Positions 18,217 to 48,495 of a stretch of DNA of 50,738 nucleotides are shown one piece after another. Each line of letters opens with the position of its first letter. The stretch's first letter is position 1. The notes under the pieces are model-generated. The model was not told the DNA's origin and ran no database searches. It saw only the letters and a program-made list of their open reading frames with translations. The translations under genes were made by a program, and so were the position numbers. Source of the stretch: an uncultured Dehalococcoidales bacterium (GTDB lineage Bacteria; Chloroflexota; Dehalococcoidia; GIF9; AB-539-J10); contig CAYYUO010000001.1 of the NCBI GenBank assembly GCA_964474965.1, forward strand, positions 1-50,738, read 5' to 3'.

Positions 18217-18221
18217 ACTGA
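18147..18221 (+). pseudogene. 24-codon 5' stub of a RAM-domain gene (MATRGYFMITVTEGFYRNYYQNVH*); possible uORF overlapping the acs start
   Basis: First 11 codons are identical to 5338.. . The SD is degraded (AAAGGAGGC -> AAAGAGGAC). The stop at 18219-18221 overlaps the acs ATG (18211) by 11 nt. Confidence 0.6.
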
Positions 18222-30088: not shown

Positions 30089-30188
30089 TTCACACCTCAC
30101 TATTTACCATTTTGGTTGAGATAGCCTTGAGATAGACATCTTCAAAGTATCCAACCAACTAATTTCGCGGGAATAGCTCGAATGTTGG

Positions 30189-31895: not shown

Positions 31896-31920
31896 AAGTC
31901 CCTCCTAATCTTGCCATTTG

Positions 31921-32652: not shown

Positions 32653-32734
32653 TTCTTTCCTCCTCAATAATTTATATATCCGACATGTGAGCCGGGGTAG
32701 CTCTTAAGGGCTGCCTCTCTCACCCACAATGACA

Positions 32735-33385
32735 TTAAGAAAGCCTCTTCACCGGAGGCCCTGATGTAAGGCTCACACTCCAATTCTTCGGTGTCACAAG
32801 CCTTTCCAATTTATCAAGTTGTCCTAGTTTGGCAAGGCGATCGACAATCTGTTGCCAGACGCAGGGTATATCTGGATCAACTTCACATTTACCACCTTGT
32901 GAGCCGCCACAGGGACCATTAAGCAGATGCTTAGAACATCGGGCAATGGGACAGAGTCCACCAGTAAAATCCAGCACACAATCACCACACTCAAGGCAGC
33001 GCTCCGCTTCTTTCCACTCGGCATGAGCACCACCTGAGGACAGAGTGTTGCAGCCAGGATGTACTACCTTATTCACTAATTCCGCTACAGTCTGCACTCC
33101 AGCCCCATCGGTCAGAATCAGGATAGAATCGGCAGCAGCAATTTCCTTTTTATAAGCTCTGAGTTTCAACTTGGTTAACGTGCTATCACATAGCATATCA
33201 ACAACTACTGAACCCGAGACAGCTTTACCCCGTTCCTGCAAAGCGTTTTTCATTTCTGCCACTTGCTTTTCCCCGCCACTCCCCCAACCCTCAGCACAAC
33301 CTTTACAACCAATTAGAAAGATACTCTTATCCCCTTCAAGATAGCTCAGGATTTCTTCAAGTGGTTTTTGCTCCGAAATCAGCAT
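32735..33385 (-). CDS. Second MetV-like paralogue, 216 aa
   Basis: CLECGDCVLDFTGGLCPIARCSKHLLNGPCGGSQGGKCEV, with the same N-terminal ILSYLEG..IFLIGCKGC module as the neighbour. Confidence 0.78.
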   Translation of the reverse strand: MLISEQKPLEEILSYLEGDKSIFLIGCKGCAEGWGSGGEKQVAEMKNALQERGKAVSGSVVVDMLCDSTLTKLKLRAYKKEIAAADSILILTDGAGVQTVAELVNKVVHPGCNTLSSGGAHAEWKEAERCLECGDCVLDFTGGLCPIARCSKHLLNGPCGGSQGGKCEVDPDIPCVWQQIVDRLAKLGQLDKLERLVTPKNWSVSLTSGPPVKRLS

Positions 33386-33858
33386 TTCGTCTCTCCTTTA
33401 GGATTTGTATTATTAAGTTCTGCCAAAATGGCATCTATTATCTGAGGCATTTTTTCTTGAAGCTCCGGAGATAATTCCAACCCCCAGTCAACTTCCTTAG
33501 GCTCAACTCCAATAATGACAGCCTCATCTATCCCGATAAAATCAGGCTGCCAAAGCTGCATTAACATTAAGCTATCCACTAAGCCCAAATCGTGAAGGGA
33601 TAGAAATGGCTTTCGCTCTAGATTTATATCTTCAAGATGAAAGCGGTAGATTTGTCCTGGCACTCCCTCACCCTTAACAGCATCCACTATGATCAATTTA
33701 TCAGCGTCCTCAAGAAACTGCAGTACATCGGGGCATGTCCCCCCATCCATTATTTTTACATCGGGGAGAGGGATCCCCTCCAAAGCATGTGCCACATGAC
33801 AACCAATCCCTTCGTCTCTTAACAAGACATTCCCTATGCCCAGAACAAATTTCCCCAT
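33379..33858 (-). CDS. [NiFe]-hydrogenase maturation endopeptidase (HybD/HycI/HoxW family), 159 aa
   Basis: MGKFVLGIGNVLLRDEGIG...IVDAV...LSLHD motifs. Start set at internal ATG 33858. Confidence 0.85.
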   Translation of the reverse strand: MGKFVLGIGNVLLRDEGIGCHVAHALEGIPLPDVKIMDGGTCPDVLQFLEDADKLIIVDAVKGEGVPGQIYRFHLEDINLERKPFLSLHDLGLVDSLMLMQLWQPDFIGIDEAVIIGVEPKEVDWGLELSPELQEKMPQIIDAILAELNNTNPKGETKC

Positions 33859-33883
33859 TCCTGAACTTTCCTCCAAATTTTTA

Positions 33884-35443
33884 CTAACAAACCCTGAATT
33901 TCCCCAGGTCATGCCCTTTAAGACTGAGCAAATGCACAGAACAGGCGAGACAAGGGTCGAAGGCCCTCACAATGCGCACTATCTCAAAGGGATTAACCTC
34001 ATCCTTTATCTTGGTGCCAGTGATAGCCTGCTCCAAGGGTCCAGGTTGGTCTTTATCATCCCTGGGAGAAATATTCCAGGTAGAAGGGGTAATGACCTGG
34101 TAATTAGCAATCTTGCCTTCTTTTATTTCTATCCAGTGTCCGAGGGCACCCCTCGCCGCACCGACAAGTCCCATCCCAGTAGCTCCTTCTGGGAGTTCGT
34201 AGCTTGTGTAAGCTGGCTCACCGGGCTTGAGCTCTAGAACCCAGTCGGCCATAGCATCGGCTATGAGTTTGGTCTCCAAGGCTCGAGCAAGATTTCGCCC
34301 CATGACAGAAAACATCTTGTCGGGGCCTATATTTGCCTGGGATAAGGCAGAATCAACCAGGTTCTTGACTCCGGTATTGCCAGCGACATAGTTGACCATG
34401 ATTCGAGCCAGTGGCCCGACTTCAAAAACCGTCCCGCCATAACGGGGTGATTTTAGCCAGGAATAAGCTCCCTTCTTTTCTTCATCAAGAACAACGTCTC
34501 CCTTAGAGGGATGTTTGCCGCTGATAGAATCGGCATACCAAGAATGCCTCACCTCTTCAGTGATCTTAGTTGGATCACATTCATTAAACTTAAGACTGGT
34601 AGAGGTAGTCCCCGGCTTAAAAAATCTTTTCCGCTTGGTGAGGTCCGCTTCCTTTCCATCCAGTTCATAGGAGCCATAAGCAAGCAGGTTCCCACAGCCA
34701 CTACCAATCTCAAAATAATCTGAGTAAACGCCGGCCACTGCCAGTACATCTGGGAGGTAAATATTATCAATAAACTCCTGGATCTCCTTCAACCTCCACA
34801 GGAAGGAGGTCATATTGTCAACCGTGGGTACAGAGGCAACTCCACCGGGCATTACGCCCATGTTGTGAGGCATCTTACCACCGAACAGGGCAAGCATCTC
34901 CTGGCTTTTACGACGCATGTCAAAGGCGGCAACATAATGGGCCACCGCCTGCTCATTGACCTCCTCGGGCAGACGATAATCACCTTCATAACGAGGTACA
35001 AAGGGTCCCAATTCTCCACGCGCAATAAAGCTCTTTATTGAATTTAAGGCGGGATTATTCCCTTCATACTTTGCTAATTTAGCCACATCTACATAGTCAA
35101 GAGCTACCAGGTGATAAAAATGAAGAATGTGGTCAGCGATATGGGCTGCCCCGAGGACGATATTGCGAATAATTCTGCCGTTGTCGGGTATTTTGTCGGC
35201 GATGCCAAAGGCACTATCCAGATTTAAAGCAGCGGCAATAGAATGGCTTGTCGGGCAAACTCCACAAATACGTTGAGCTATCCGCTGGGCATCACGGGGA
35301 TCCCTACCCCTCATGATCAGCTCTAAGCCGCGGAACAGTGTCCCTGAACTTCTAGCCTCTTTCACCTTACCACCCTCAACTACTGCCTCCACCTTGAGAT
35401 GTCCCTCAAGACGGGTAACTGGATCAATTATGATCTTGCCCAT
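33884..35443 (-). CDS. [NiFe]-hydrogenase large subunit (group 1/2-like), 519 aa
   Basis: IIIDPVTRLEGHLKVE, L1 motif QRICGVCPTSH and C-terminal DPCLACSVH followed by a 15-aa cleavable extension. Start at ATG 35443, SD GAGGAGG. Confidence 0.92.
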   Translation of the reverse strand: MGKIIIDPVTRLEGHLKVEAVVEGGKVKEARSSGTLFRGLELIMRGRDPRDAQRIAQRICGVCPTSHSIAAALNLDSAFGIADKIPDNGRIIRNIVLGAAHIADHILHFYHLVALDYVDVAKLAKYEGNNPALNSIKSFIARGELGPFVPRYEGDYRLPEEVNEQAVAHYVAAFDMRRKSQEMLALFGGKMPHNMGVMPGGVASVPTVDNMTSFLWRLKEIQEFIDNIYLPDVLAVAGVYSDYFEIGSGCGNLLAYGSYELDGKEADLTKRKRFFKPGTTSTSLKFNECDPTKITEEVRHSWYADSISGKHPSKGDVVLDEEKKGAYSWLKSPRYGGTVFEVGPLARIMVNYVAGNTGVKNLVDSALSQANIGPDKMFSVMGRNLARALETKLIADAMADWVLELKPGEPAYTSYELPEGATGMGLVGAARGALGHWIEIKEGKIANYQVITPSTWNISPRDDKDQPGPLEQAITGTKIKDEVNPFEIVRIVRAFDPCLACSVHLLSLKGHDLGKFRVC

Positions 35444-35447
35444 TAAT

Positions 35448-36311
35448 TCAAACCTCCTCTGGCAAAGCAGCTTCGCTAGTTTTTTCATAGAGCGGGGCTA
35501 TGTCGAAGAACCCGGGCTCGGTGCAGCCAATACAAGTTGCACCACAGCCTACACACCAACTAACTTTATTGTTCCATAACCTTAGAGGACAATCGGCATG
35601 GGTTATAGGTCCCCTACACCCCAATTCATAGTTGCACCCGGGATCGCCGAACTTCTTAGCAAACTTATTCTCATCATAGTAGGCTCGCCGTGGGCAGTTT
35701 TCGTGGATTGTTTGCCCATAGAAGGCCTTAGGACGCCCAAGCTCGTCCAAATCCTCCGGCTTCGGCAGACCGGAAAGCAGAATGCTTGCCACCGTACCCA
35801 CAAACCAGTCAGGGTGTGGTGGACAACCGGGGATGTTTACCACTGGAGTATTGATGCCTTTGGCCTGGAGAATCCCACTGACGCTGCGACACTGAGTAGG
35901 GTTAGGTTGGGCAGCGGGAATTCCCCCAAAGGCAGCACAGCTACCCAAAGCGATGACCGCCAGGGCATCCTTGGCCAATGTTTCAACCCACGATTTCATG
36001 GTCATTGGCTTCCCATCCTTTTCACCAACCACCCCATGGATACCACCCTTAGCAGTGGGTATAGCCCCTTCTACAATCAGGATGTAACCTTTCTTTTTCT
36101 TCCGTGATGTATCCACCATAACCTCAATGGCAGACGCTCCCGCCCCCGCCATTACAGTAGGATGGAACCTTAGATTTATATGACTGCCCGGGAGCACTTC
36201 GTCAACTAAGAGGTTTTTAATAGAGGGATTTATAACATTGAGAAGAGAGACTGAGCACCCGGTACATCCAGCGGCTTGTAACCATATCGCCGGGTATTCT
36301 TTTGTATCCAT
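35448..36311 (-). CDS. [NiFe]-hydrogenase small subunit, no Tat signal peptide, 287 aa
   Basis: First proximal-cluster Cys at residue 16 (WLQAAGCTGCS). GSCAAFGG, GCPPHP, IHENCPRR, GCRGP...DCP...SWCVGCGATCIGCTEP. Confidence 0.9.
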   Translation of the reverse strand: MDTKEYPAIWLQAAGCTGCSVSLLNVINPSIKNLLVDEVLPGSHINLRFHPTVMAGAGASAIEVMVDTSRKKKKGYILIVEGAIPTAKGGIHGVVGEKDGKPMTMKSWVETLAKDALAVIALGSCAAFGGIPAAQPNPTQCRSVSGILQAKGINTPVVNIPGCPPHPDWFVGTVASILLSGLPKPEDLDELGRPKAFYGQTIHENCPRRAYYDENKFAKKFGDPGCNYELGCRGPITHADCPLRLWNNKVSWCVGCGATCIGCTEPGFFDIAPLYEKTSEAALPEEV

Positions 36312-36374: not shown

Positions 36375-37142
36375 TCATAAAGGTAAACGTTCAACTATCT
36401 CTTTGACCTTTAATTGAAGGGGAGATTCCCGGGGAAGTTCGGTTACGGGCCTCCCTTTCATTTCCAAACCTGCTATATTGGGGTCTTCTGGAATCAGAGC
36501 AATAATCTGAAGGCCAGATTCGTCAATTGCCTTCTTTATCTCCGGAGATAATTCACCCTTGACACGGTTGACTATAAGTCCAAGTTCACCTATCTTTGTT
36601 CTCAATTCTCCAATGAGTTCCTTAATTCGCGCTGCTGCAGTAATACCTCTCATCGTGGGGTCAGACATAATAAGCAAAACATCCACATCTCTGGTTGTTT
36701 GGCGGCTAATGTGTTCCATGCCTGCTTCGCAGTCCATGACAATATAATTATATTTATAATCTTTCACCAGCTTATCCAAGGAGACGCGCAGGAATTCATT
36801 GGGCGCACAATAGCATCCTGGCCCTTCCGGACGCCCCATGGCTAAAAGGTCAAAGCCTTCGGACTCTACCAAGGATTCCAGTATCTTGCCAAACAGATAT
36901 TCCTGCTTGGCAATGGTGGGGCTTAAACGACCCTTGGAGATATCCTCAGTCATCTTTTCCCGTATTCTACCCACAGTCTTACTATCATCCAGAGGCAGAC
37001 CCAGCGCCTGGTTAAGATTGGTGCTAGGGTCAGCATCTACAGCCAGTACCAACCCCTTTTGAGAAAGGAGCTTGATGAGTAAGGCAGCAACACTAGTCTT
37101 ACCTGTACCCCCTTTTCCTGCGACAGCAACCGTTTTGGTCAT
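36375..37142 (-). CDS. cooC: CooC/AcsF-type nickel-insertion ATPase, 255 aa
   Basis: VAVAGKGGTGKTSVAA P-loop, CYCAPNEF (CxC metal motif) and DCEAGMEH. ATGA overlap with the nuoF-like stop. Confidence 0.88.
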   Translation of the reverse strand: MTKTVAVAGKGGTGKTSVAALLIKLLSQKGLVLAVDADPSTNLNQALGLPLDDSKTVGRIREKMTEDISKGRLSPTIAKQEYLFGKILESLVESEGFDLLAMGRPEGPGCYCAPNEFLRVSLDKLVKDYKYNYIVMDCEAGMEHISRQTTRDVDVLLIMSDPTMRGITAAARIKELIGELRTKIGELGLIVNRVKGELSPEIKKAIDESGLQIIALIPEDPNIAGLEMKGRPVTELPRESPLQLKVKEIVERLPL

Positions 37143-39043
37143 TTCCTTGCTCTCTTTTCAGACAAATTTGAGGAAGGCAACGAGCTAACAGGCGATACCT
37201 TCACCACTGCATTATACTCGGGAGGGCAGACTTCCAAGCATGTACCACACTTAGAGCACTTTTCCTGGTCTATGATTTTAACTTCCCCTTTACCTCCCTT
37301 AATTGCTTCTGTGGGACAGGTCAACACACAATGCTCACAGGCTCTATCACACTTATCTGGAAGGATATAATAAGCAGTGAGTTCGGGACATACTCTGGCA
37401 GGGCAACGCTTTTCCAGGATGTGAGCTTCGTATTCATCACGGAAATAACGCAGGGTTGTGAGGACAGGGTTGGGAGCTGTTTTTCCTAAGCCACAAAGCG
37501 ACCCTATCTTAACATCCTCAGCTAATGAGAGGAGAAGGTCAATATCCTCTATTTTGCCTCGGCCAGCCGTGATGTCCTCCAAAATGTTTAGCATTTGCAA
37601 AGTCCCTAAGCGACACATAGTGCATTTGCCGCAGGATTCCTTGGTAGAGAAATCAAGAAAAAACCTCGCAGCATCAACCACGCAGTTATCCTCATCCATG
37701 ACAATCATACCCCCCGAGCCCATCATCGAGCCAGCCTCTCGAAGAGAATCATAGTCGATAGGGATGTCGAGCAAAGTCTCGGGAAGACAACCCCCCGAGG
37801 GTCCTCCTATCTGTACTGCCTTAAATTGCTTGTCTTTAGCAATTCCTCCACCTATATCATAAATAAGCTCACGCAGTGTTGTTCCCATAGGTACTTCGGC
37901 CAATCCCGAATTGGCTACTTTGCCTGCCAGGGTAAACACCGCCGTGCCTTTGCTTCCCTCAGTGCCATTGGAGGCGAACCAATCCGCACCTCGTTTAACT
38001 ATCAAAGGAACATAGGCAAAAGTTTTCACATTGTTTAATAAAGTGGGCCTACCCCACAAGCCAGACTCTGCGGGATAAGGTGGCCTGGGGCTAGGTGTGC
38101 TCATCCTCCCTTCAACAGCCGCTATCAGTGCTGTTTCTTCACCAGAGACGAAAGCACCAGCTCCTGCTGCTATTTCGATATGGAAACCAAAACCACTCCC
38201 TAAGATATTATCTCCCAGGAAACCTAGTTCCCCGGCTTGCTTTAAAGCAATCTGCACGCGCTCAATAGCTAAAGGGTATTCAGCACGGACATAGATATAC
38301 CCTTGCTCGGCACCTACGACGTAACCGGCAATAATCATGCCTTCGATAACCTGATGGGGGTCGCTTTCCAGAACAACCCGGTCCATAAAAGCACCGGGGT
38401 CTCCTTCATCGGCGTTGCATACTACATATTTTGGCGTGCTTTTAGCCTTACGGCATAGCTCCCACTTTCGATGTGTAGGAAATCCAGCCCCTCCCCGCCC
38501 CCGCAGCCCCGACTTTTGCAGTTCCCCAACTATTTCCTCAGGCGGCATCTTTAACGCCTTCTCCAGACCGCTATAACCGCCATTAGCGATGTAATGATTT
38601 ATATTCTCAGGATTTATGTAACCACAGTGTCTCAATATGAGGCGAAGCTCATGTTCGAACCTGGGAAGTTCTGGAATGTAAACGCCTTCTTCACCGTCTC
38701 CTTCAAGGGTACCTAAGGCAAGCTCGAGGCAAGGGTCATCGCCCACAATATAGCCTTCCACAAGGCGGGATACAGTCTCCGGAGTTACATTGTGATACAC
38801 GACGCGAAGAGAATCAGGCTTACATATAGTAACCAGGGGATCGGCATAGCATAGTTCTATGCAGCCAACCTGGATAATCGGGACTTCCAAGCCTCTCCGT
38901 GTTAGCTCCTTATTAAAGGCGTCAACTACATCCAGGGCACCGGCTGCCCGACCACAAGTAGCTGTGCCGACAATAATGTAGCTGCCCTTCTGCAGAGCCG
39001 CCCATTCCGACTGCGCTTTATTATTAATTTCCTCAAAAGTCAT
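37139..39043 (-). CDS. NuoF/HydB-like NAD(P)H-FMN Fe-S flavoprotein, second paralogue, 634 aa
   Basis: GLRGRGGAGFPTHRKW, NADEGDPGAF, ESCGKCTMCR and C-terminal CEHCVLTCP / CSKCGTCLEVCP. Start uncertain (ATG 39043 or GTG 39052), with no clear SD. Confidence 0.85.
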   Translation of the reverse strand: MTFEEINNKAQSEWAALQKGSYIIVGTATCGRAAGALDVVDAFNKELTRRGLEVPIIQVGCIELCYADPLVTICKPDSLRVVYHNVTPETVSRLVEGYIVGDDPCLELALGTLEGDGEEGVYIPELPRFEHELRLILRHCGYINPENINHYIANGGYSGLEKALKMPPEEIVGELQKSGLRGRGGAGFPTHRKWELCRKAKSTPKYVVCNADEGDPGAFMDRVVLESDPHQVIEGMIIAGYVVGAEQGYIYVRAEYPLAIERVQIALKQAGELGFLGDNILGSGFGFHIEIAAGAGAFVSGEETALIAAVEGRMSTPSPRPPYPAESGLWGRPTLLNNVKTFAYVPLIVKRGADWFASNGTEGSKGTAVFTLAGKVANSGLAEVPMGTTLRELIYDIGGGIAKDKQFKAVQIGGPSGGCLPETLLDIPIDYDSLREAGSMMGSGGMIVMDEDNCVVDAARFFLDFSTKESCGKCTMCRLGTLQMLNILEDITAGRGKIEDIDLLLSLAEDVKIGSLCGLGKTAPNPVLTTLRYFRDEYEAHILEKRCPARVCPELTAYYILPDKCDRACEHCVLTCPTEAIKGGKGEVKIIDQEKCSKCGTCLEVCPPEYNAVVKVSPVSSLPSSNLSEKRARK

Positions 39044-39092
39044 GGTAAACACAAGATAGAAACAGAGATAGATAAGGGATAGGGACTCTGCC

Positions 39093-39584
39093 TCAACTCT
39101 TCTCTTTCTGAGTGTCTTGCTTATACGAGGCCAACACCTCTTCCACCTTAAAAGGCGTCATCTTAGGATGAATTTTATCCTTTATCACTATTACGGGAGC
39201 CAGCATGCAGCACCCGATACAAGCGACCCTTTCCAAGCTAAAGTTACCATCTTCGTCAGTCCTGCCTACTTTAATATCTAACTCACGCTCCAGGGCCTCC
39301 AAAATAAGTCTACCCCCCGCTAAGTGACAGGCAGTCCCCATACAAACCGTGGTGTGGTACTTACCTAACGGAACAAAACGGAACTGGTTATAAAAGGTAG
39401 CAACCCCCCAAACCTCAACCTCTGGCATCTCCAAGAAGTCAGCAATTTCTTGCATAGTTTTCTTGGGGAGATATCCCAGCTTTGTCTGAACTTCTTGCAA
39501 TAGCGGGATTAAATTTTTTTTCTCCTTTTTATGCGAGCTTAGAATCTTAGCTACCGCTTGGCTAGCTTGTTTTTCTGCAATCAT
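39093..39584 (-). CDS. NuoE/HydC-like 2Fe-2S protein, second paralogue, 163 aa
   Basis: LIPLLQEVQTKLGYLP...VCMGTACHLAG...CIGCCMLAP. ATGA overlap with the acsC stop. Confidence 0.88.
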   Translation of the reverse strand: MIAEKQASQAVAKILSSHKKEKKNLIPLLQEVQTKLGYLPKKTMQEIADFLEMPEVEVWGVATFYNQFRFVPLGKYHTTVCMGTACHLAGGRLILEALERELDIKVGRTDEDGNFSLERVACIGCCMLAPVIVIKDKIHPKMTPFKVEEVLASYKQDTQKEKS

Positions 39585-40945
39585 TCTTTAAGTTGCTTAG
39601 CAAATCCAGGCAGGAAGGCCGCTATTCCAGTCGTTTCCCGGGGACCGATTATTATCTCCCATTCGAGGTTCAAAGCATCTTCGAGCTCGCCTTTGATTCT
39701 GGCCACTTTCCCCGGGATAATTATCTTTCTATGTTCCACCTTATCCTCGATGCCACATTTCTTGATAAATGTTCCTACGGAATCGCCGCTAAACTTACCT
39801 GCTGCCCAGGCAGTGAGGACACCAAGCCCTTCCGCGTCCTTAACACAAACGTAGGCGGGAACCTTGGTAGCCTCGACAGCCGATGAGACAAGGAAGTAGG
39901 TCAAAGCCCAATTTGAAGTGACGAGTACTGGGGAGGATTCGTCAGGTTCTCCCACTTCATAATACTTCTCCTCTACTGCCATAGGAAAACGAGGATCGGT
40001 ATAAATGTTAAGCCGTTGAACTAGAAGAGGAAGCAGGGAGTGTTGGTCGAAATCAGAAAGGACAATAATGCCGGCCCATTTATTTATAAACGCCGAGCCC
40101 GCTATGATTTCCTTCAGTCCATCTTTGACCATGAAGCAAGGAAAGGCAATAGTGGGATAGCCAAGAGGCCTGAAACCCTGCTTTAGCGCTGCCCTTCTGA
40201 TAAAGGTTTGGTCTCTTATCGCCTCCACTAAATTTTTAGAACCAGGGTCTAAAACCACTTCCTCAATCCCAGCATCTTTTAACTTGGTAGTTAGAGGAAC
40301 AAGTTCCTCAATACTCCCTCCACGAAGGCCAACAGGAGTAAGATTCTCTTTAATCTTTGGAATGGCCTCGTCAATGTTTTCCTTCGTTATGGGGTAAAGA
40401 AGTGGACGTCTATCCGCACATATATCCCGTGCCGCAAATAAGACATCCATATCTTCTGAGATTAAGACCATACCCAGGTTTGTTGAATCATAAACTTTCT
40501 TCACCAAAGCCAAAAACTTGTCCTTGCTCCCCGATTCAAAATAGATTGCCAAAAGGTCTGCCTTTAGATTTACGCCGACCCAGGGGAATTGCATTTCCCT
40601 TATCTTCTTTATTTTTCCCTCAATTTTGGCATTGTCTTCCTTGTCTGAGATAAGGAGGACAATGCCTGGCGAATGGACAAAGGTCTTTTCATGACGGTAT
40701 ATCACTTCTTCATTCCCGATTTTGACAGCGTTCTCCCCAGAGCCTATGGTAACAAGTTTTATCGGTGGTGCCAGAAGATCCAGCAGCTTGGCTTTTGTCT
40801 CTTCGGAGAGGTAAGGACATTTGTCTACAGTAGCTCCACCCGACGCTAGCTTCATGGCAAAAGCAAAACAAGTAGGGAAGCCACAGTCCTTACACGGTCT
40901 CCTTCCGGGAAGCAACTTTACAATCTCAGAACCTGCAACTGGCAT
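39581..40945 (-). CDS. acsC: Corrinoid iron-sulfur protein large subunit (AcsC / CdhE-like), 454 aa
   Basis: N-terminal 4Fe-4S motif CKDCGFPTCFAFAMKLA...CPY, then a TIM-barrel and a Rossmann-like C-domain. SD GAGGAGG lies 6 nt before ATG 40945. Confidence 0.88.
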   Translation of the reverse strand: MPVAGSEIVKLLPGRRPCKDCGFPTCFAFAMKLASGGATVDKCPYLSEETKAKLLDLLAPPIKLVTIGSGENAVKIGNEEVIYRHEKTFVHSPGIVLLISDKEDNAKIEGKIKKIREMQFPWVGVNLKADLLAIYFESGSKDKFLALVKKVYDSTNLGMVLISEDMDVLFAARDICADRRPLLYPITKENIDEAIPKIKENLTPVGLRGGSIEELVPLTTKLKDAGIEEVVLDPGSKNLVEAIRDQTFIRRAALKQGFRPLGYPTIAFPCFMVKDGLKEIIAGSAFINKWAGIIVLSDFDQHSLLPLLVQRLNIYTDPRFPMAVEEKYYEVGEPDESSPVLVTSNWALTYFLVSSAVEATKVPAYVCVKDAEGLGVLTAWAAGKFSGDSVGTFIKKCGIEDKVEHRKIIIPGKVARIKGELEDALNLEWEIIIGPRETTGIAAFLPGFAKQLKE

Positions 40946-41006
40946 AGCAAACCTCCTCAATTAAAACTGGGACAGCATTATGAATTTCACCTTTTACCTC
41001 TGACAT

Positions 41007-42254
41007 TTACGTTGGAAGCTCTACTTCCCCTTTTATCCAGGGATGCCCCACTTTTTCTAAGAACTCTAGAAGCTCATCCACGTTTTTAACGTCTTCCTCT
41101 GTGGCTATTTTATCGTAGAGTCCTTTCGCTTCCAGGACATCTTTAAACCTTTCCTTTATCTCCTTGGGCATCCACACTATTCTGGCCAGGCCACCGTCCG
41201 CCTGGATGAATTTGGGAGACCTTAGTTGCTCCAGTCCAGTTCCCAATCTTCCTTCTATTTGTTTTCCTCCAGAAGTTTCACCAGCCATGTGGGAAAATGT
41301 CTCTCCTACTACAGTTTCACTCTTGAAGTCTCTGTTCACTACTCCAAAGGCATCCACCTCAGGAATGTAATATACAATTGCTTCGAAACAGCCACAAGAT
41401 GTATGGGGGTGCTCAAATGCACTATAGAGATAAACTCTATCGTAGTTTCCCAGAGACTTTTCAGCTTCAATTGCATTCGCTCCTGAATATTCACCTTTTA
41501 TAGCATCTATAAGCTCTCCCTTCGGTATGGCAAATATGGGTCCCTCAGGGTCAATCTTGGCAGCAGCTCTGCCGTCAAACCAGTTTATCGCTCCACAGTT
41601 GGCAATTCTATTTGGAGTTATGATAGAGATATGGGTTGGGGCGAAGCTCTGGCATAGAACACAGCCGTAGAAAGTATCCACATCCTCATCATTCAAGGTC
41701 CTTGCCCGCTCATCCCTGGCGGCATAAACTTCCAAAGCGTGGGGAAGAAGCTCCTCTATCTTTTTTTCATCGGTGATAATAGTGACTTGGATGCTCTCGA
41801 TGATTGGCATCTCTGATGTATAAAGCAAGATATAAATTTCTCCCAATTCCCGCAGGGAATTAAAGCCCTTTTTATAGCAGTCTTTATTCATCCTAATCCA
41901 TACATCCTGCCTCTGATTCATATGATACCAGCCCTCAGTCATATTGGTGAACATGTGAATTCTTCTCTCAATGATTGCTTCGGCATCCTTGTCCAATTCA
42001 CTCCCGGCAACGTCTACCAGAATGGCAATAGGATAGCTACCACCGCCTTTCTCTGCATCATAAGGTTTCAAATCACCGATGTCTGGGCCAATAATTTCTA
42101 CTTTCTCATTCTCTATTTCATCAGGGCTCTTAACTGTTGCTAATTCAAACTTATGTGCTGCTTTTGGCCCACCGAACTCGATGTAGAGGTCTTGTTTTCT
42201 TATCACCTCTCCTTCATACTGTGGTCCCATATCTACATGAAATTCGCCTTCCAT
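41007..42254 (-). CDS. cdhC: Acetyl-CoA synthase catalytic subunit, short archaeal-type (CdhC-like), 415 aa
   Basis: A-cluster region CVLCQSFAPTH...HTSCGCFEA (Cys-Gly-Cys). Lacks the long N-terminal domain of bacterial AcsB. Confidence 0.88.
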   Translation of the reverse strand: MEGEFHVDMGPQYEGEVIRKQDLYIEFGGPKAAHKFELATVKSPDEIENEKVEIIGPDIGDLKPYDAEKGGGSYPIAILVDVAGSELDKDAEAIIERRIHMFTNMTEGWYHMNQRQDVWIRMNKDCYKKGFNSLRELGEIYILLYTSEMPIIESIQVTIITDEKKIEELLPHALEVYAARDERARTLNDEDVDTFYGCVLCQSFAPTHISIITPNRIANCGAINWFDGRAAAKIDPEGPIFAIPKGELIDAIKGEYSGANAIEAEKSLGNYDRVYLYSAFEHPHTSCGCFEAIVYYIPEVDAFGVVNRDFKSETVVGETFSHMAGETSGGKQIEGRLGTGLEQLRSPKFIQADGGLARIVWMPKEIKERFKDVLEAKGLYDKIATEEDVKNVDELLEFLEKVGHPWIKGEVELPT

Positions 42255-42260
42255 CTTCCT

Positions 42261-42812
42261 TTAGTCTCCTTTCTTTAAATTGGCTATCAAGCTTTCTAAG
42301 AACTCCTGCCACTTCGCATCCTTCTTGAAATTAGGGAGCGAGTAATTGGCATGGGGGAAGTAATACTTGCACAGCGTCATAGTCTTTAAATGAGGTGCAA
42401 AGTGTTTGAGTGTAGAAAGGCTTTGGTTACCAAGATCCGACCTTATGCCGAAGAAGATCACCAGGTCATGGTTTCCCTCCTTCTTAACTCCCTGCCAGTC
42501 AGGGTCCTTAAGAGCATTAGCTATCTCGACGGTATCGTAAACGCAATCTGGCTGTACTCCCAACTCCACGATTTTCCCTCTAGTCTGGGCTGTCGCACAT
42601 ATTGGAATACCAGCCGCTTTGGCTATGTCCAAAGCATACTCCATAAGTAATTTTCCATCAGGCAGAGACTTTAACAATAGAGGACCAACTACAAGAAGTG
42701 GCCTTTTAGCCTTCTTAATCAGACTGGCATACTCCACGGGGTCTTCGATCAGCCTGGCCGATTTGATTCCCGTTAAGACGTTTACTCGGTGGCGTGGTAT
42801 TACTGCACTCAT
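42261..42812 (-). CDS. cdhB: CODH/ACS epsilon subunit (CdhB), 183 aa
   Basis: Size, position between cdhA and cdhC, and an N-terminal ...ARLIEDPVEYASLIKKAKRPLLVVGP... Rossmann-like pattern typical of CdhB. Confidence 0.75.
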   Translation of the reverse strand: MSAVIPRHRVNVLTGIKSARLIEDPVEYASLIKKAKRPLLVVGPLLLKSLPDGKLLMEYALDIAKAAGIPICATAQTRGKIVELGVQPDCVYDTVEIANALKDPDWQGVKKEGNHDLVIFFGIRSDLGNQSLSTLKHFAPHLKTMTLCKYYFPHANYSLPNFKKDAKWQEFLESLIANLKKGD

Positions 42813-42844
42813 TTTTCTCTCCTTTTAACCATTTTCCACTACGA

Positions 42845-45151
42845 CTAGTGTATCACTGCATCCACAGGAACCTTGGTGCGATAGGTGCCAATAAGGGTAG
42901 GCAATCCAATGGGCTCTCTAGGCTGCCAGCCAATTTCCTGTAAGTGTGCTCGCACTTCCTTTTTATAGACTAGCGGTATGTCGGCATCTCTGCGGACAAA
43001 GAGGTGTAAGTCTTCGGGAAGACCGGGTCCAATATACTTCCTATACAGGGAAATATAGTGGTTCAGCTTTATCGCTCTTCCCTGAGGAGTATCGTTTCTT
43101 CTTATGCAAAGCTTAGCAATCATGGGCATAGCTTTCTCTTTAGTCTCACATACATAAGCCAGGTGCTCAGGTGCTGGCTCCACAGTATCCACAATCTCCC
43201 TTTTCCTGGCATCCATAACCTTCCAGTCGTCCTCTTCCTTCCTGGAGAGGAATAGTCTTCTATACTTGGAGGAGTGAGGTCCCAAAACAACAGGAACACC
43301 CAGCCTGTTAAACCCTGTGCCAATGGAAGCCGCCTTCTGGGACATTGCCCCCCAGGCCACACCGCAGGCGCCCACCCTATTAAGGACATAATCAGCCATG
43401 ACCTCGTAGTTGCCTCTCAAGGGAAGAGCAGCAAAGATATTGGCTATTTTTATCGCCGCTCCAGAGATGTGAGCATTGGAGACACAGGAGCCAATGTTCA
43501 CTACCCCTCCAGCATCAAAATTCGGGGGGTATTTTTCGTACACTGTCAAGCCATCCTCGTCCTTTTTCATTCCGGCAACCATAGCAGCACAACCTGTGAG
43601 AACCACGATATACTTTCTCCTGGCGAATTCATCCACCATGTCGGCAATATCCTCTATATTGGGGTAATTAGAACAGCCTACTAAGGCAATAACTCCCGGG
43701 ATTGTGCCCAAGGTTATAGGCGCACCAACGTTCCTTATCTCGGTATCCATAACCGGACCGCGTCCAGCCCTGCATTTCCAGGTCTCCATGCTTGCTGCTG
43801 TCTGCATTATCTTAAAGATGGGAACATTATTGGGGCACTCCTCTTCACATTTACCGCAACCAATACACTGCAGAAATTGCTGCCTTATTAAGTCAAAGTT
43901 CCCTTTGGCGACCTCAGTTATCCCACCGCCAATATTAAAGAGGTTGGGACACACCTGCTCACACATTTTACAGTTGGTGCACTTCTTAGCAAGCTCTATG
44001 GCTTCTTCCTCCGTTACCCATTCCTTCTTTCTCTGGGGAGCTATTGCCATAGCAACTTTAACTGCTACCTCGGCCGCTTTGGGGGAATCCAGGATGGCGA
44101 ACTGCTCCTTGTTATCCACCATTCGCCTTACTATCTCATCTGGATCCAGGTCAGTGGCATCCTCAAGTCCATACATAGCCTTGTCCAGGCAGGCGATCAT
44201 TGCTGAACCCACCTTGGCTGCTTCCTGAGGCGTATCTGTTCTGATGCACTGCTCGTCAGTCATTATCACATCGGCAATGCCTGTCCTCATGAAGAAAAGC
44301 GCACGGGAAAGAGGACCAACTATTTTGGCTTTGTCCGAATACCTGGTTGTTTCCAGTGCAGTGCAGCACAGGCCGCAGACCTCCACCTGGTCTTCAAGGT
44401 TGTGTTCCCTGAGGTAGTCAATTACCACCGTCGAGGTAGCTGGGTTATGCCCCGATACCAGGATCACAGGCTTACTCTTATCTATTGCCCCCCAGCCCAT
44501 ATCAACAAGAGGTGTCTCAGCAACAGAGGTGGGATAATTGAATCCAACTATTTGTGCGATATCAGCTATTTCCATGCCTACATGGTCCAGCATGCTGGCA
44601 TGCAAGGCCTTGGATTCATAGTCCAGAGCGTTTCCTTCTTGCCCCGTATGGCAAGAATCAAGAAGATGAGCAATCTCCTTGAAGACATACTCTAGAGCTA
44701 TTTGAAGGTCTCCGAGAGTCTCAGGCTTCAGGCCTACAACTGTCCTTATATTTGGTGCTTCTACTTCGATAGATGTTCCTAAGTCTATCTTTTTATCCGG
44801 ACCGTGCCTTTCAATCAAGAACTCCAGAATGTGCCCACCATGAGCAGCATGAGCGGAGCATCCCATCAAGCAGGCGAGAAGTACAAACCTTGCTTGTTGG
44901 GTAGCTATATCAATACCACAGGCGCCTCTTCTTCCTTCAGTTAGGTCACACTTACCGTAGGTACAGAAGCAACACAAATCACAGAATGGTGCGTAAAAAG
45001 GCGCATATGTTTTCAATAACCTCATGTCCCATTGTCTAAGGTCAGGCATCTCCGGCATCGGAGTGGGACCTACTGGCTCCCAGGGAATCTCCGCTTTTAT
45101 CTTTTCATGAATTTCTTCTAATTTCCGTGTTATTTCTTTTACTTCTGCCAT
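42845..45151 (-). CDS. cdhA: Carbon monoxide dehydrogenase catalytic subunit, archaeal alpha-type (CdhA) with inserted 2x[4Fe-4S] domain, 768 aa
   Basis: N-terminal Cys-rich region (CDLCCFCTYGKCDL..GACG), HAAHGGH, SGHNP, the insertion CTNCKMCEQVCPN...CIGCGKCEEECPN, and GCSN/GSCVSN C-cluster motifs. Start moved to ATG 45151, 2 nt after the acsD stop, with SD GAGG. Confidence 0.9.
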   Translation of the reverse strand: MAEVKEITRKLEEIHEKIKAEIPWEPVGPTPMPEMPDLRQWDMRLLKTYAPFYAPFCDLCCFCTYGKCDLTEGRRGACGIDIATQQARFVLLACLMGCSAHAAHGGHILEFLIERHGPDKKIDLGTSIEVEAPNIRTVVGLKPETLGDLQIALEYVFKEIAHLLDSCHTGQEGNALDYESKALHASMLDHVGMEIADIAQIVGFNYPTSVAETPLVDMGWGAIDKSKPVILVSGHNPATSTVVIDYLREHNLEDQVEVCGLCCTALETTRYSDKAKIVGPLSRALFFMRTGIADVIMTDEQCIRTDTPQEAAKVGSAMIACLDKAMYGLEDATDLDPDEIVRRMVDNKEQFAILDSPKAAEVAVKVAMAIAPQRKKEWVTEEEAIELAKKCTNCKMCEQVCPNLFNIGGGITEVAKGNFDLIRQQFLQCIGCGKCEEECPNNVPIFKIMQTAASMETWKCRAGRGPVMDTEIRNVGAPITLGTIPGVIALVGCSNYPNIEDIADMVDEFARRKYIVVLTGCAAMVAGMKKDEDGLTVYEKYPPNFDAGGVVNIGSCVSNAHISGAAIKIANIFAALPLRGNYEVMADYVLNRVGACGVAWGAMSQKAASIGTGFNRLGVPVVLGPHSSKYRRLFLSRKEEDDWKVMDARKREIVDTVEPAPEHLAYVCETKEKAMPMIAKLCIRRNDTPQGRAIKLNHYISLYRKYIGPGLPEDLHLFVRRDADIPLVYKKEVRAHLQEIGWQPREPIGLPTLIGTYRTKVPVDAVIH

Positions 45152-45153
45152 AT

Positions 45154-46059
45154 TTACCTCTTCTCTATCGTTTCTTTTATTAATTTCAAGGTCTCGGGAT
45201 GCCTTAAGACAATAATATTCGCTCCAGCCAAGAGAAGTGATAGCGCTGTTATTCCTTCCCAAAGCAATCCCTGTTCCTTGTTTTCCTTAGCCTGTTTTGT
45301 CTTCCAGCACTCCCCACCAAGATTGGCAATAATCGGCATCATTGTCATATTATCCTTGGTGATTATCCCAATCTGCTTCACCCTTTCCATCAGAGAAAAG
45401 CTGTATTCCATACCATAGCCTAATGCTGCGGATTCAGGATCGATGACTATCTTGTCAACGGGGAAAAATTTGCTGAGCTTTACATTTAACTCCTTCAGCA
45501 AATTGATGTCTAACGGAGTCTGGGCAATAGCCGTGTGTCCATGGTCCAGAATCGCTTTGCCCACTGCTTCGTAATTTTCCTTAATAACGGGGCCTATAAG
45601 GAGGTTCATTCCATCACATACTTCAGCGACCTTGGAAAGAACCTCAATATCCTTCTTTTCATCTCCCGAGCCATAGACAATCAAAGGCACATTTATTGCC
45701 TCGGCTACTGCTTTAGCTAATTCCGCTGCTTTGTCAGCAGGAGCATCCTTGACCGCCGGGTCGGTACTCATAAGAAAAAACGACACGGCATCTACAGCAA
45801 AGTCCTGGCATTTCTTAGCCCATTTTACAGGGTCGGAAATTACATCCTGAAAAGGCTCGACCAGATGCTTTGGCCAATCTTGAGGCTCCATATCAAGCAC
45901 TTCCAGGGCAAACTTCGCCGGATTGGGGTTTGAGCCCTGGTCAAAAAAATGCAAGGGGAGGATATTCTCCCCCCCGATCTTCAAGCTCTTCTCTCCTTTC
46001 CCGATAGTTACCTCTCTAACTACCCCAGTATATGCTTCAACTGGTGCTTTATATTCCAT
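45154..46059 (-). CDS. acsD: Corrinoid iron-sulfur protein small subunit (AcsD / CdhD-like), 301 aa
   Basis: MEYKAPVEAYTGVVREVTIGKG...KIGGENILPLHFFD is a typical AcsD N-terminus. TIM-barrel-size protein; SD GGAGGG. Confidence 0.85.
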   Translation of the reverse strand: MEYKAPVEAYTGVVREVTIGKGEKSLKIGGENILPLHFFDQGSNPNPAKFALEVLDMEPQDWPKHLVEPFQDVISDPVKWAKKCQDFAVDAVSFFLMSTDPAVKDAPADKAAELAKAVAEAINVPLIVYGSGDEKKDIEVLSKVAEVCDGMNLLIGPVIKENYEAVGKAILDHGHTAIAQTPLDINLLKELNVKLSKFFPVDKIVIDPESAALGYGMEYSFSLMERVKQIGIITKDNMTMMPIIANLGGECWKTKQAKENKEQGLLWEGITALSLLLAGANIIVLRHPETLKLIKETIEKR

Positions 46060-46071
46060 TCCTTACCCTCC

Positions 46072-46959
46072 TTAACTTTCAAGCCAGGCATCGGAGTACA
46101 AAGTCTCTCCCATAAGGACCTTGACCGTCTTAACATACTCAATTTCTTTTTGCGATAGGGAAGAAAGGTCTATATCTTCCCCATCCATGGTCTTGTAAAT
46201 AAGTTCGACAATTCCCGGCATCTCTCCCCTGGTCAAGCTCATAAGCTCCTTATCCAAAGGGTCAGCAATGGCAGAATAAAGCTTATTCCTTTCAAGCATG
46301 ACCATATACGTGCGATTAAGAGGCGGCCTGAGTTCATCTGGCACGCCATTGGATGTATTGGAAAGCCCTACCGTGGATTTAACCCCAGGCAAAACATCTT
46401 CAAGTATGTTGATAAATTCTAGATTTATCACAGTGAACCTCTGCCCTTCTCCAGCGGTGCTGATGGGAAGGAGTATGGGGTCAACCCAGATGTTCTCGTT
46501 AGGAATCCCCAATTCATTAGCATGGGCAACCGTGTCCATAATACTCTCTATCTTGGACTCGACATCCGGAGGCATTCCTTTGTCCGTCATCACCGAAATT
46601 ACCACATCACAGTTATATTTTTGAGCTAAAGGAAGCATTTGCTCTTTTGAGAGGCTCTTTCCTGAGGCAGAGTTAAGCAGGGGCTTCCGCTTGCAAGCTT
46701 TCAGGCCTGCCTCCATAGCCACAGGATTCAGGGTATCTATGGACAAAGGTAAATCGGTAGCTTCCTGAACTGCGTTGACCAACCATTGCATAGTCTCTTC
46801 GGTGTCTTTTTTCATGGGCCCAACATTTAAGTCAATATAACCGGTCCCAGCTTCAGTTTGGGCCTTAGCTAAATCCTGGATTACTTTGGCATTTCTATCC
46901 CTTATCGCTGTGGAAATTGCCTGAGCTATGACATGTATATTTTCGCCAATAATGACCAT
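46072..46959 (-). CDS. acsE: Methyl-tetrahydrofolate:corrinoid Fe-S protein methyltransferase (pterin-binding), 295 aa
   Basis: MVIIGENIHVIAQ...YIDLNVGP...LSIDT...GLSNTSNG are pterin-binding (MeTr) motifs. Start at ATG 46959 (SD GGAGG, 8-nt spacer), because the track start at 47028 falls inside the promoter. Confidence 0.88.
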   Translation of the reverse strand: MVIIGENIHVIAQAISTAIRDRNAKVIQDLAKAQTEAGTGYIDLNVGPMKKDTEETMQWLVNAVQEATDLPLSIDTLNPVAMEAGLKACKRKPLLNSASGKSLSKEQMLPLAQKYNCDVVISVMTDKGMPPDVESKIESIMDTVAHANELGIPNENIWVDPILLPISTAGEGQRFTVINLEFINILEDVLPGVKSTVGLSNTSNGVPDELRPPLNRTYMVMLERNKLYSAIADPLDKELMSLTRGEMPGIVELIYKTMDGEDIDLSSLSQKEIEYVKTVKVLMGETLYSDAWLES

Positions 46960-47007
46960 ATCGAGTACCTCCGATTTATCGGTTGGGTATCCGGGATAAA
47001 CCATTGC

Positions 47008-47036
47008 AATATAGCAAGGAAAAAGCAATTTGTCAA
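47008..47036 (-). promoter_or_regulatory. Candidate strong sigma70-type promoter of the acsE...operon
   Basis: Minus strand TTGACA-17 nt-TATATT, ~48 nt upstream of the acsE ATG. Confidence 0.6.
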
Positions 47037-47107
47037 AACCCTTATTTTGCTGTCAGGAAGCTAGAATGTCACCCTTTTATCTTGAAGCAAGAATTTCACC
47101 ACATGTT

Positions 47108-47129
47108 CAGGGTTAATCCAGGGTTAATC
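47108..47129. repeat. Perfect 2 x 11-bp tandem direct repeat CAGGGTTAATC upstream of the acsE promoter
   Basis: Read directly; located 72-93 bp upstream of the -35 (minus-strand sense). Confidence 0.9.
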
Positions 47130-47199
47130 TATGAAAAGCACAGGCTCAGTCTTCTGTTTAGAAATATAGGGTAATTCGCAGTATCTTCAAGTCAGCACA

Positions 47200-47228
47200 T
47201 TGCGAGGACTATATGTGTGTGATATAAT
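47200..47228 (+). promoter_or_regulatory. Candidate extended -10 promoter of the RCC1-repeat gene
   Basis: TTGCGA-17 nt (ending TGa)-TATAAT. Would give a ~160-nt 5' leader. Confidence 0.5.
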
Positions 47229-47396
47229 AATCTGTAAGCTAGAGATTTTGAAAAACTAAACTATTAAGACCGTTTAATTATCACCCTGACCTTAACTGAA
47301 ACGAAAAGGAAGGGTCTCTGATTCTTCGGTCGCCCTGGCGATCCCAGAATGCCAGGGAGATTATTAAACAGTCTCGACGGATAATAGGAGGTGGCA

Positions 47397-48422
47397 ATGA
47401 AAAATAGAAAAATCCTTTTACTAGCTTTGCTCTCTATCGCTCTGGTCTTCAGTCTGGTTCTTCCTACTTTTGTCATGGCTAAAGGACAGGTAACGCCCGT
47501 GGTCGCCGCAGGCAGCGGTCACACACTAGGGCTTAAGTCCGACGGCACCGTGGTCGCCATGGGATCGAATGGCTGGAGGCAGTGTGATGTCGGCGGCTGG
47601 ACGGACATCACCCGGATCGCCGCAGGCGCGTATCACACAGTGGGACTTAAGGCCGACGGCACCGTGGTCGCCATAGGATGGGACGTCGATGGGCAGTGCG
47701 ATGTCAGTGGCTGGACAGACATCGCCCAGGTCACTGCAGGTTATGACCACACAGTGGGACTTAAGGCCGACGACACCGTAGTCGCCGTGGGGAACAACTA
47801 CTATGGGCAGTGCGATGTCGGCGACTGGACGGATATCATCCAGGTCGCCGCTGGCGGTGGGAACAAGCTCGCTGGCAGGACAGGGCAGACGGTGGGGCTT
47901 AAGTCCGATGGCACTGTAGTCGCCATGGGATATAACGACGACGGACAGTGCAATGTCGGCGACTGGACAGACATCTCCCAGATCGCCGCAGGCGGCTTTC
48001 ACACAGTGGGGCTTAAAGACGATGGTACCGTGGTTGCTACGGGACAGAATAACTACGGGCAGTGCAATGTCAGCGGCTGGGCGAACATTATCCAAGTCGC
48101 TGCAGGTGGTAGTCACACAGTTGGGCTTAAGTCCGACGGCACCGTGGTCGCCGTAGGATACAACTACCTCGGGCAGTGCAACGTCGGCAACTGGACGAAC
48201 ATTGTCCAGGTCGCCGCAGGCGGCCTTCACACGGTGGGGCTTAAACCCGACGGCACCGTGGTCGCCACAGCCTATGAGACTGAACTTGCCAAATGGAATC
48301 TGAAGCCTGCCAAACCAATTAACTGGCCACTCCTTGGCGGGATTATAGCAGCGGTGGTAGTAGTGGGACTGGTGATTTTCTTCGTGCATAGAAGGAGAAC
48401 TACTCAGACCAAAAGAAGCTGA
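47397..48422 (+). CDS. Secreted/membrane-anchored RCC1-like 7-bladed beta-propeller repeat protein, 341 aa
   Basis: Signal peptide-like N-terminus (KILLLALLSIALVFSLVLPTFVMA). Seven ~50-aa repeats HTVGLK.DGTVVA.G.N..GQC[DN]V..W..I.Q[VI]AAG. C-terminal TM helix plus RRRTTQTKRS. SD AGGAGG before ATG 47397. Confidence 0.85.
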   Translation: MKNRKILLLALLSIALVFSLVLPTFVMAKGQVTPVVAAGSGHTLGLKSDGTVVAMGSNGWRQCDVGGWTDITRIAAGAYHTVGLKADGTVVAIGWDVDGQCDVSGWTDIAQVTAGYDHTVGLKADDTVVAVGNNYYGQCDVGDWTDIIQVAAGGGNKLAGRTGQTVGLKSDGTVVAMGYNDDGQCNVGDWTDISQIAAGGFHTVGLKDDGTVVATGQNNYGQCNVSGWANIIQVAAGGSHTVGLKSDGTVVAVGYNYLGQCNVGNWTNIVQVAAGGLHTVGLKPDGTVVATAYETELAKWNLKPAKPINWPLLGGIIAAVVVVGLVIFFVHRRRTTQTKRS

Positions 48423-48477
48423 ATTGAGCTTCCGCCCATAAGGATTGCACGTTGGCAGGAAGGATATGGGAAAATTG

Positions 48478-48495
48478 TGCCTGACCAAGCAGGCA
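48478..48495 (-). terminator. Weak candidate terminator hairpin downstream of the minus-strand gene ending at 48500
   Basis: TGCCTG-6 nt-CAGGCA; on the minus strand it is followed by CAATTTTCCC. Confidence 0.3.

Follow-up and report, generated by a model that had tools for sequence, protein, structure and literature searches.

Hybrid carbon monoxide dehydrogenase/acetyl-CoA synthases (CODH/ACS), combining archaeal-type Cdh subunits with bacterial-type Acs subunits, have been described from several bacterial lineages. Suzuki 2018 (PMC6305446) reported a 'Bacteria/Archaea hybrid six-subunit' CODH/ACS in NPL-UPA2 Unc8, Ca. Desulforudis audaxviator and the Chloroflexi bacterium RBG_13_51_36, and Merino 2020 (PMC7325909) described the operon 'acsED-cdhABC-acsC' in Hakuba Actinobacteria. 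Type II Acetothermia also carry the hybrid, and bacterial CdhABC, those of Chloroflexi included, are monophyletic with class I methanogens (Colman 2022, PMC9586279). A July 2026 preprint (PMC13370988) describes bacterial CdhC proteins without either terminal extension in Chloroflexota, Thermodesulfobacteriota and Myxococcota. The DNA examined here, called the window, is the whole of a 50,738-nucleotide contig (C1, 50.7 kb; CAYYUO010000001.1 of assembly GCA_964474965.1) from an uncultured Dehalococcoidales bacterium. It very probably encodes a known hybrid six-subunit CODH/ACS, with archaeal-type CdhABC and bacterial-type AcsCD and AcsE in one operon beside genes of the folate branch. The arrangement is one already published; the window is one more instance of it, and it is common in its class.

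The source is a metagenome-assembled genome (MAG) of 1.04 Mb in 102 contigs, 67% complete with 0.3% contamination, and the closest protein relatives of the window carry the name Dehalococcoidia bacterium. A single long array of minus-strand genes runs from 46959 down to 24877, from acsE through a NuoG-fused FdhA. The array opens with the core order acsE-acsD-cdhA-cdhB-cdhC-acsC, which equals the published acsED-cdhABC-acsC when compared with the described cluster types. The profile scores of all six core genes lie far above chance expectation. The core features are given below, with lengths in amino acids (aa).

46072..46959, minus strand: acsE, methyl-tetrahydrofolate:corrinoid/Fe-S protein methyltransferase (MeTr), 295 aa, with a Pterin_bind domain
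45154..46059, minus strand: acsD, small subunit of a bacterial-type corrinoid iron-sulfur protein (CFeSP), 301 aa; NF003376, 347 bits
42845..45151, minus strand: cdhA, archaeal-type Ni-CODH alpha subunit, 768 aa from ATG; TIGR00314, 1094 bits against a cut-off of 781
42261..42812, minus strand: cdhB, epsilon subunit of archaeal-type CODH; TIGR00315, 131 bits against a cut-off of 101
41007..42254, minus strand: cdhC, two-domain acetyl-CoA synthase, 415 aa; TIGR00316, 569 bits over profile positions 1-399 of 460
41625..41627, minus strand: codon 210 of cdhC, TCT (Ser), aligned to where the [4Fe-4S] cubane of the A-cluster has its third Cys ligand
39581..40960, minus strand: acsC, large subunit of bacterial-type CFeSP; PRK04165, 553 bits; open reading frame (ORF) of 459 aa from TTG

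An earlier note, made from the letters of this DNA, had read the genes as a bacterial genome's mixture of two sets, CdhABC of archaeal type and AcsC, AcsD and AcsE of bacterial type. Scores from hidden Markov models, comparisons with structures in the PDB and phylogenetic trees all agree with this reading. The six genes stand in that order in a genome whose GroEL, CIRCE element (controlling inverted repeat of chaperone expression) and TsaD lie on the same contig. The subunit features in the note hold as well, including the 768-aa CdhA with its two-[4Fe-4S] ferredoxin insert, the CdhB epsilon subunit after it, the short 415-aa ACS without the AcsB N-terminal domain, the 301-aa AcsD and the pterin-binding AcsE. 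For AcsC the note gave 454 aa, where the ORF has 459 aa from its TTG start.

The CODH component is of the archaeal kind throughout. The ferredoxin insert of CdhA lies at C391-C401 and C429-C439, with the motifs CTNCKMCEQVCPN and CIGCGKCEEECPN both present. Compared with structures, CdhA scores 888 bits against 8riu_A, the alpha subunit of archaeal acetyl-CoA decarbonylase/synthase (ACDS), and 719 bits against 3cf4_A, but only 68-80 bits against bacterial AcsA. It keeps all of the 26 Cys/His columns conserved in archaea, including the metal ligands, and its N-terminus is ~13 residues shorter than in archaea. CdhB, from a family described as exclusive to archaea, scores 87 bits against 1ytl_A. 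No second, bacterial-type CODH was found with CdhA as query in the MAG, itself only 67% complete.

CdhC is shorter than either of its relatives, at 415 aa versus 460-520 for archaeal CdhC and ~730 for AcsB. It lacks both the N-terminal (A1) domain of bacterial AcsB and the C-terminal tail of archaeal CdhC (median 61 residues). Its score against archaeal 9c0s_E is 445 bits, versus 399 bits against the C-terminal two domains of AcsB. The CODH_ACS_al_bet model gives 507 bits, under its cut-off of 800, with only the C-terminal 400 positions matched.

Trees of the individual subunits, a check that the earlier note had proposed, do not place all of them in ordinary bacterial clades. The locus set comprised 80 named loci around ACS genes of GTDB genomes and 16 loci from the order of the window, with 30 Bacillota loci added for AcsC and loci from seven genomes added for AcsE. 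Careful trees of CdhA, CdhC, AcsC and AcsD were made with IQ-TREE, and their support is given as ultrafast bootstrap/SH-aLRT (Shimodaira-Hasegawa-like approximate likelihood ratio test). Quick trees with more rows carry SH-aLRT values only; they agree with the IQ-TREE results and are the sole trees for CdhB and AcsE. Hybrid bacterial CdhA form one clade (100/100), which joins Methanobacteriaceae versus all other archaea (98/94) in an unrooted tree of three well-supported groups. The hybrid CdhB clade (SH-aLRT 100, starred) is sister to Methanobacteriaceae with a support of 80. Hybrid CdhC likewise form one clade (100/99), nested among archaeal CdhC and split from three-domain AcsB (100/100). 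By trees and PDB scores together, CdhA, CdhB and CdhC thus all fall within archaeal-type clades, and the trees reproduce the published placements of the hybrids.

The methyl-transfer subunits belong to the other side. AcsC scores 372 bits against the CFeSP large subunits of Moorella (4djd_C) and Clostridium autoethanogenum (9fzy_F), and AcsD scores 262 bits against the CFeSP of Carboxydothermus hydrogenoformans (2h9a_B). AcsD lacks the disordered N-terminal region of its archaeal counterpart, and its 301 aa compare with medians of 322 in bacteria and 407 in archaea. Each falls with the CFeSP subunits of bacteria, and the branch that sets it off from archaeal CdhE or CdhD has a support of 100/100. 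AcsE scores 153 bits against Moorella MeTr (1f6y), and its assignment to the bacterial type comes with a caveat: it falls under the cut-offs of both NCBIfam models (222 versus 259 bits for PRK07535, 186 versus 370 for the other), and the hybrid-cluster proteins form a clade of their own (SH-aLRT 100, starred) beside canonical bacterial AcsE. They are ~293 aa long (295 in the window) versus ~261 in the canonical form, with a C-terminal extension of ~35 aa. A search of a Methanobacterium genome for AcsE found none at E<=1e-10.

The window can be set against four described systems. The closest is the Unc8-type hybrid, which has the identical subunit set and order and the same affinity of CdhABC to class I methanogens. 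For each of the six proteins the Unc8 locus (L033) groups in the clade of the window, and its identity to the window is 64% in CdhA and 60% in CdhC. The two differ in their surroundings, as the window lineage has a BfuBC-type nuoE/nuoF pair and cooC downstream of acsC, whereas in Unc8 cooC lies upstream and nuoEF is merely 'close' (PMC6305446). Some members of the window genus are further set apart from Unc8-type hybrids by an inserted [NiFe] hydrogenase, and the third cubane ligand of CdhC is Ser in the window genus and Cys in Unc8.

The second is the CdhC clade of the 2026 preprint, which lacks the prismane A1 domain and the disordered C-terminal extension (PMC13370988). The window CdhC matches on both counts and is nested in the CdhC clade. 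The taxa given there, Chloroflexota, Thermodesulfobacteriota and Myxococcota, are also the taxa recovered here. The Cys-to-Ser change and the flavoprotein neighbours, both seen in the window, go without mention in the passages of the preprint that were consulted. Among the ACS cluster representatives, a 700-aa protein (P0123) has the N-terminal domain and is basal to the CdhC clade, not with AcsB; this placement fits the 'prismane-CdhC' clade of PMC13370988.

Archaeal ACDS, as found in Methanosarcina, Methanothermococcus and Methanobacterium, shares with the window the architecture of CdhA, its ferredoxin insert and conserved ligands, the CdhB epsilon subunit and a two-domain ACS. Unlike archaeal ACDS, the window has a bacterial-type CFeSP and an AcsE in a bacterial host, and its CdhC and AcsD lack the disordered termini, including the C-terminal extension of CdhC. 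Given the bacterial-type CFeSP and AcsE, the pterin is probably folate rather than tetrahydromethanopterin (H4MPT) or tetrahydrosarcinapterin (H4SPT). Canonical AcsABCDE, as in Moorella thermoacetica, Carboxydothermus hydrogenoformans and Clostridium autoethanogenum, shares the AcsC, AcsD and AcsE matches and the folate methyl branch. However, the window has CdhA/CdhB in place of an AcsA-type CODH, and instead of a three-domain AcsB it has an ACS without the A1 domain that tethers AcsB to AcsA.

The A-cluster of CdhC departs from the expected set of four cubane Cys and a Cys-Gly-Cys motif. The ligands are spaced C198-x2-C201-x8-S210-x9-C220 ... C287-G-C289, so that three cubane Cys and the Cys-Gly-Cys motif are present and the third cubane position is Ser210. 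The A-cluster ligands of M. thermoacetica are Cys506, Cys509, Cys518 and Cys528; Ser210 maps to Cys518 because the spacing is identical, and it would thus replace the third cubane Cys. Archaeal CdhC have Cys in this column without exception (65 of 65), as do all further hybrid CdhC that were compared; of 75 ACS representatives from the whole family 73 have it, and the remaining two appear to be frameshifted. Ser takes its place, through either a TCT or a TCC codon, in the window, in eight of the relatives fetched and in all 119 close cluster representatives. The Ser-substituted ligand is under purifying selection, and the TCT/TCC variation is synonymous. A Cys occupies the position preceding Ser210 in 28 of the 119 close representatives, and no compensating Cys is universal. 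In this genus-level clade the cubane may be held by three Cys and Ser210; about a quarter of the relatives may instead use a Cys one position away, and either arrangement would retune the cluster. No description of a Cys-to-Ser change at the third A-cluster ligand was found in the literature searched. Separately, Ser210 co-occurs with a change of E to N or D in the following 'TPER' motif.

Part of the order has no cdhB. Seven related genomes, 92-98% complete, lack cdhB genome-wide (loci L018-L023 in G038, G037, G040, G032, G034 and G025, and L024 in G028). Five of these sister-family genomes keep a full-length CdhA, 48-52% identical to that of the window. In G025 CdhA has 695 aa and the ferredoxin insert is also lost, and in G028 it is truncated to 445 aa and looks like a pseudogene. 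In the archaeal cluster of a Bathyarchaeota MAG (L037), the usual site of cdhB, between cdhA and cdhC, is taken up by an Fdh-like gene and a nuoE/nuoF pair.

The remainder of the array and its surroundings contain the following features.

39093-39584 (nuoE) and 37139-39052 (nuoF), minus strand: nuoE-like and nuoF-like flavoprotein pair of HydC/HydB (BfuC/BfuB) type; 742-751 bits to NfnB 9n5u_B and NiFe-HydB 7t2r_B
36375..37142, minus strand: CooC/AcsF-like MinD-family ATPase (CbiA/MinD family), a presumed Ni-insertion accessory protein
33379..36311, minus strand: inserted [NiFe] hydrogenase by family matches, with small subunit (35448-36311), large subunit (33884-35488) and maturation protease (33379-33912)
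32735-33385 and 31921-32667, minus strand: two tandem MetV-like (DUF5981) genes, by family match
30966-31895, minus strand: metF, by family match
30310-30966, minus strand: DUF3786, by family match
27648-30100, minus strand: second nuoE/nuoF pair, by family match
24877-27645, minus strand: NuoG-fused FdhA, formate dehydrogenase (Fdh), by family match
46960..47390, minus strand: intergenic region upstream of acsE, presumed promoter, 431 nt of non-coding DNA up to the divergent RCC1-repeat gene
47391-48422, plus strand: RCC1-repeat protein gene, divergent from acsE
21206-22204: TsaD, bacterial context
18211-20214: AMP-forming acetyl-CoA synthetase, on the same contig as the cdh/acs operon
2770-2796: CIRCE element with 1 mismatch; 0 expected by chance
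809-2437: GroEL, bacterial context

The operon starts at the ATG of acsE at 46959, with a Shine-Dalgarno sequence, GGAGG, 8 nt 5' of it. A minus-strand ORF at 47526-48488 (320 aa) was considered as a further member and rejected; it is probably no gene, because it has no family match and overlaps the plus-strand RCC1-repeat gene. The earlier note had also placed metF/metV and bacterial housekeeping genes (GroESL with CIRCE, TsaD) nearby; metF and metV were located within 30966-33385, and GroEL, CIRCE and TsaD at the positions listed.

Downstream of the core, gene order is conserved with local variation. The nuoE/nuoF pair follows acsC in all 16 loci of the order (L009-L024) and in two Desulfobacterota-type MAGs (L032, L034), and no NuoG/BfuA-like gene is adjacent to it. 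The cooC gene lies 3' of nuoF in the same 16 loci, not always directly, and upstream of acsE in L032 and L034; its product is 40-49% identical to an ATPase encoded within archaeal cdh clusters. The hydrogenase insertion pointed out in the earlier note is present, but it is patchy among members of the genus. Its site between cooC and metV is filled in the window, in L009 and in L029 (besides the window, the carriers are G004 and one Dehalococcoidales MAG), while L028 and two congeners, L010 and L011, have no hydrogenase there. In its large subunit the enzyme most resembles periplasmic group-1 [NiFe(Se)] hydrogenases, but its small subunit lacks a Tat signal. The [NiFe] hydrogenase is a cytoplasmic, lineage-variable insertion. 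In L010 and L011, where it is absent, one of the two MetV-like genes encodes a 675-aa fusion protein.

The folate branch is complete at the genus level, with MetF, MetV and Fdh in the window and Fhs and FolD in congeners; in three near-complete congeners the last two are adjacent to each other. By analogy with characterised homologues, CdhAB would interconvert CO2 and CO at the C-cluster, with low-potential electrons entering via the ferredoxin domain of CdhA, and the CO would then pass to the Ni-Ni-[4Fe-4S] A-cluster of CdhC. AcsE would take the methyl group from CH3-H4folate and place it on the Co(I) of AcsCD, from which the A-cluster would be methylated, and CdhC would reversibly combine CO, the methyl group and CoA into acetyl-CoA.

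The 2026 preprint (PMC13370988) proposes that the disordered termini of CdhA, CdhC and CdhD organise an ACDS supercomplex of ~2 MDa, and it shows a region of CdhD to drive oligomerisation of the CoFeSP. Since such termini are missing from CdhC and AcsD and CdhA has a shorter N-terminus, the window enzyme probably works as separable CODH-ACS and CFeSP/MeTr modules and not as a 2-MDa complex.

A different reading of function is that the operon serves only acetyl-CoA cleavage or the supply of C1 units, like the incomplete pathway that Dehalococcoides mccartyi has, and neither CO2 fixation nor acetogenesis. The small genome and the AMP-forming acetyl-CoA synthetase on the same contig fit such a role, and an A-cluster with Ser could give the enzyme a bias. 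The D. mccartyi system differs, however, in that the window has CODH, AcsE, MetF/MetV and an Fdh of NAD-linked type. Together with Fhs and FolD in congeners and the hydrogenase inserted in the operon, these genes indicate a complete pathway that could run in either direction, and a restriction to cleavage or C1 supply is therefore unlikely.

Several points weigh against the reading of the locus as a complete, folate-dependent hybrid enzyme of archaeal and bacterial parentage. The pterin specificity assigned to AcsE is indirect, because its scores fall under both NCBIfam cut-offs, and Fhs and FolD were not found in the 67%-complete source MAG. The CdhA trees are unrooted, which leaves the direction of transfer to be read from the CdhC tree and the literature. 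With Ser210 in CdhC, the A-cluster may differ from its textbook form. Finally, no hybrid enzyme has been purified or biochemically characterised (PMC6305446, PMC7325909).

Where the CdhABC genes came from can be approached through the same trees. An alternative to an archaeal source is that CdhABC here represent an ancient bacterial enzyme lineage, with the root on the hybrid branch. The unrooted CdhA tree, with its three groups, would accommodate such a root; a 'shared origin' was left open by Colman 2022 (PMC9586279), and the root of the ACS tree is ambiguous according to the 2026 preprint (PMC13370988). With AcsB-type ACS as outgroup, however, hybrid CdhC is nested among archaeal CdhC groups (98/91, 90/78), and no bootstrap tree (0%) has a branch that sets the archaeal CdhC apart from everything else. 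CdhA and CdhB each pair specifically with Methanobacteriaceae, and the hosts are scattered over phyla that otherwise use AcsAB. An ancient bacterial lineage is thus improbable. The module of the window shares one origin with the hybrid clusters of Desulfobacterota-type MAGs and NPL-UPA2, and its nearest archaea are Methanobacteriales-like.

The distribution of the module bears on when it arrived. The order acsE-acsD-cdhA-(cdhB)-cdhC-acsC-nuoE-nuoF-cooC is found in 16 of 16 loci, each from another genome of the order, and the hybrid core order also occurs in seven named Dehalococcoidia MAGs and in 'Deltaproteobacteria', Thermodesulfobacteriota and NPL-UPA2 MAGs. CdhA was matched in 41 of 41 relatives, about a quarter of these being only partial or ferredoxin-domain-level matches, and an even sample of the class gave matches in 29 of its 251 genomes (~12%; 23 of 160 genera). 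In two Bacillota genomes (loci L129 and L130, in G149 and G080), from the phylum of a Clostridia MAG, a hybrid-type cdhB-cdhC-acsC segment stands with a second AcsC copy each, a gene content similar to that of Ca. Desulforudis audaxviator, for which two gene sets are reported.

A recent horizontal acquisition of the archaeal-type genes, specific to this genome or genus, is very improbable. Bacteria did pass such genes among themselves, given that the hybrid clusters found in different phyla are related; the CdhA of a 'Deltaproteobacteria' MAG (L032), for example, is 70% identical to that of the window. However, CdhA extends across five sampled families of the order at 49-95% identity (truncated and pseudogene-like in G028) and into further families of the class, the gene trees largely track family groups, and the composition is fully ameliorated. 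The module has been inherited through the whole order, without recent acquisition.

A mis-assembly joining an archaeal cdhABC fragment to bacterial DNA, which only the archaeal affinity of three genes and the 102-contig source would favour, is disfavoured by synteny and composition and effectively refuted, because the acsD|cdhA and cdhC|acsC junctions recur in each of 16 relatives that were assembled independently and in the seven named Dehalococcoidia MAGs, the 120 closest representatives each of CdhA and CdhC are 79-95% identical and come from JGI, ENA, NCBI and Logan assemblies, the tetranucleotide correlation of cdhABC to the genome is 0.861 versus a genome mean of 0.846 (4-kb windows), its GC content is 46.7% versus 48.1 +/- 2.1%, and bacterial CdhA, CdhB and CdhC form their own clade apart from any archaeon. 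The check for a chimeric contig that the earlier note had called for therefore gives no sign of one, and its remark that archaeal-like cdh genes in bacteria have been discussed in the literature can be extended to this exact arrangement, which is published (PMC6305446, PMC7325909, PMC9586279, PMC13370988).

It is possible, if doubtful, that the Dehalococcoidia hybrid differs mechanistically from both of its parents in combining a Ser-ligated A-cluster with a Bfu-coupled CODH/ACS. Judging from gene order and family, the NuoE/NuoF pair, which has no BfuA, may dock on the ferredoxin domain of CdhA or on CdhB. If it does, flavin-based electron bifurcation or confurcation would couple NAD(P)H to the chemistry of CO2/CO or acetyl-CoA. 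The Ser-substituted ligand, the bifurcation-type flavoproteins after acsC and the sister lineages without an epsilon subunit offer handles for the first biochemistry of a hybrid enzyme. More broadly, the hybrid CODH/ACS bears on debates about how the Wood-Ljungdahl pathway arose and was transferred, and on carbon cycling by the abundant Dehalococcoidia of the subsurface.

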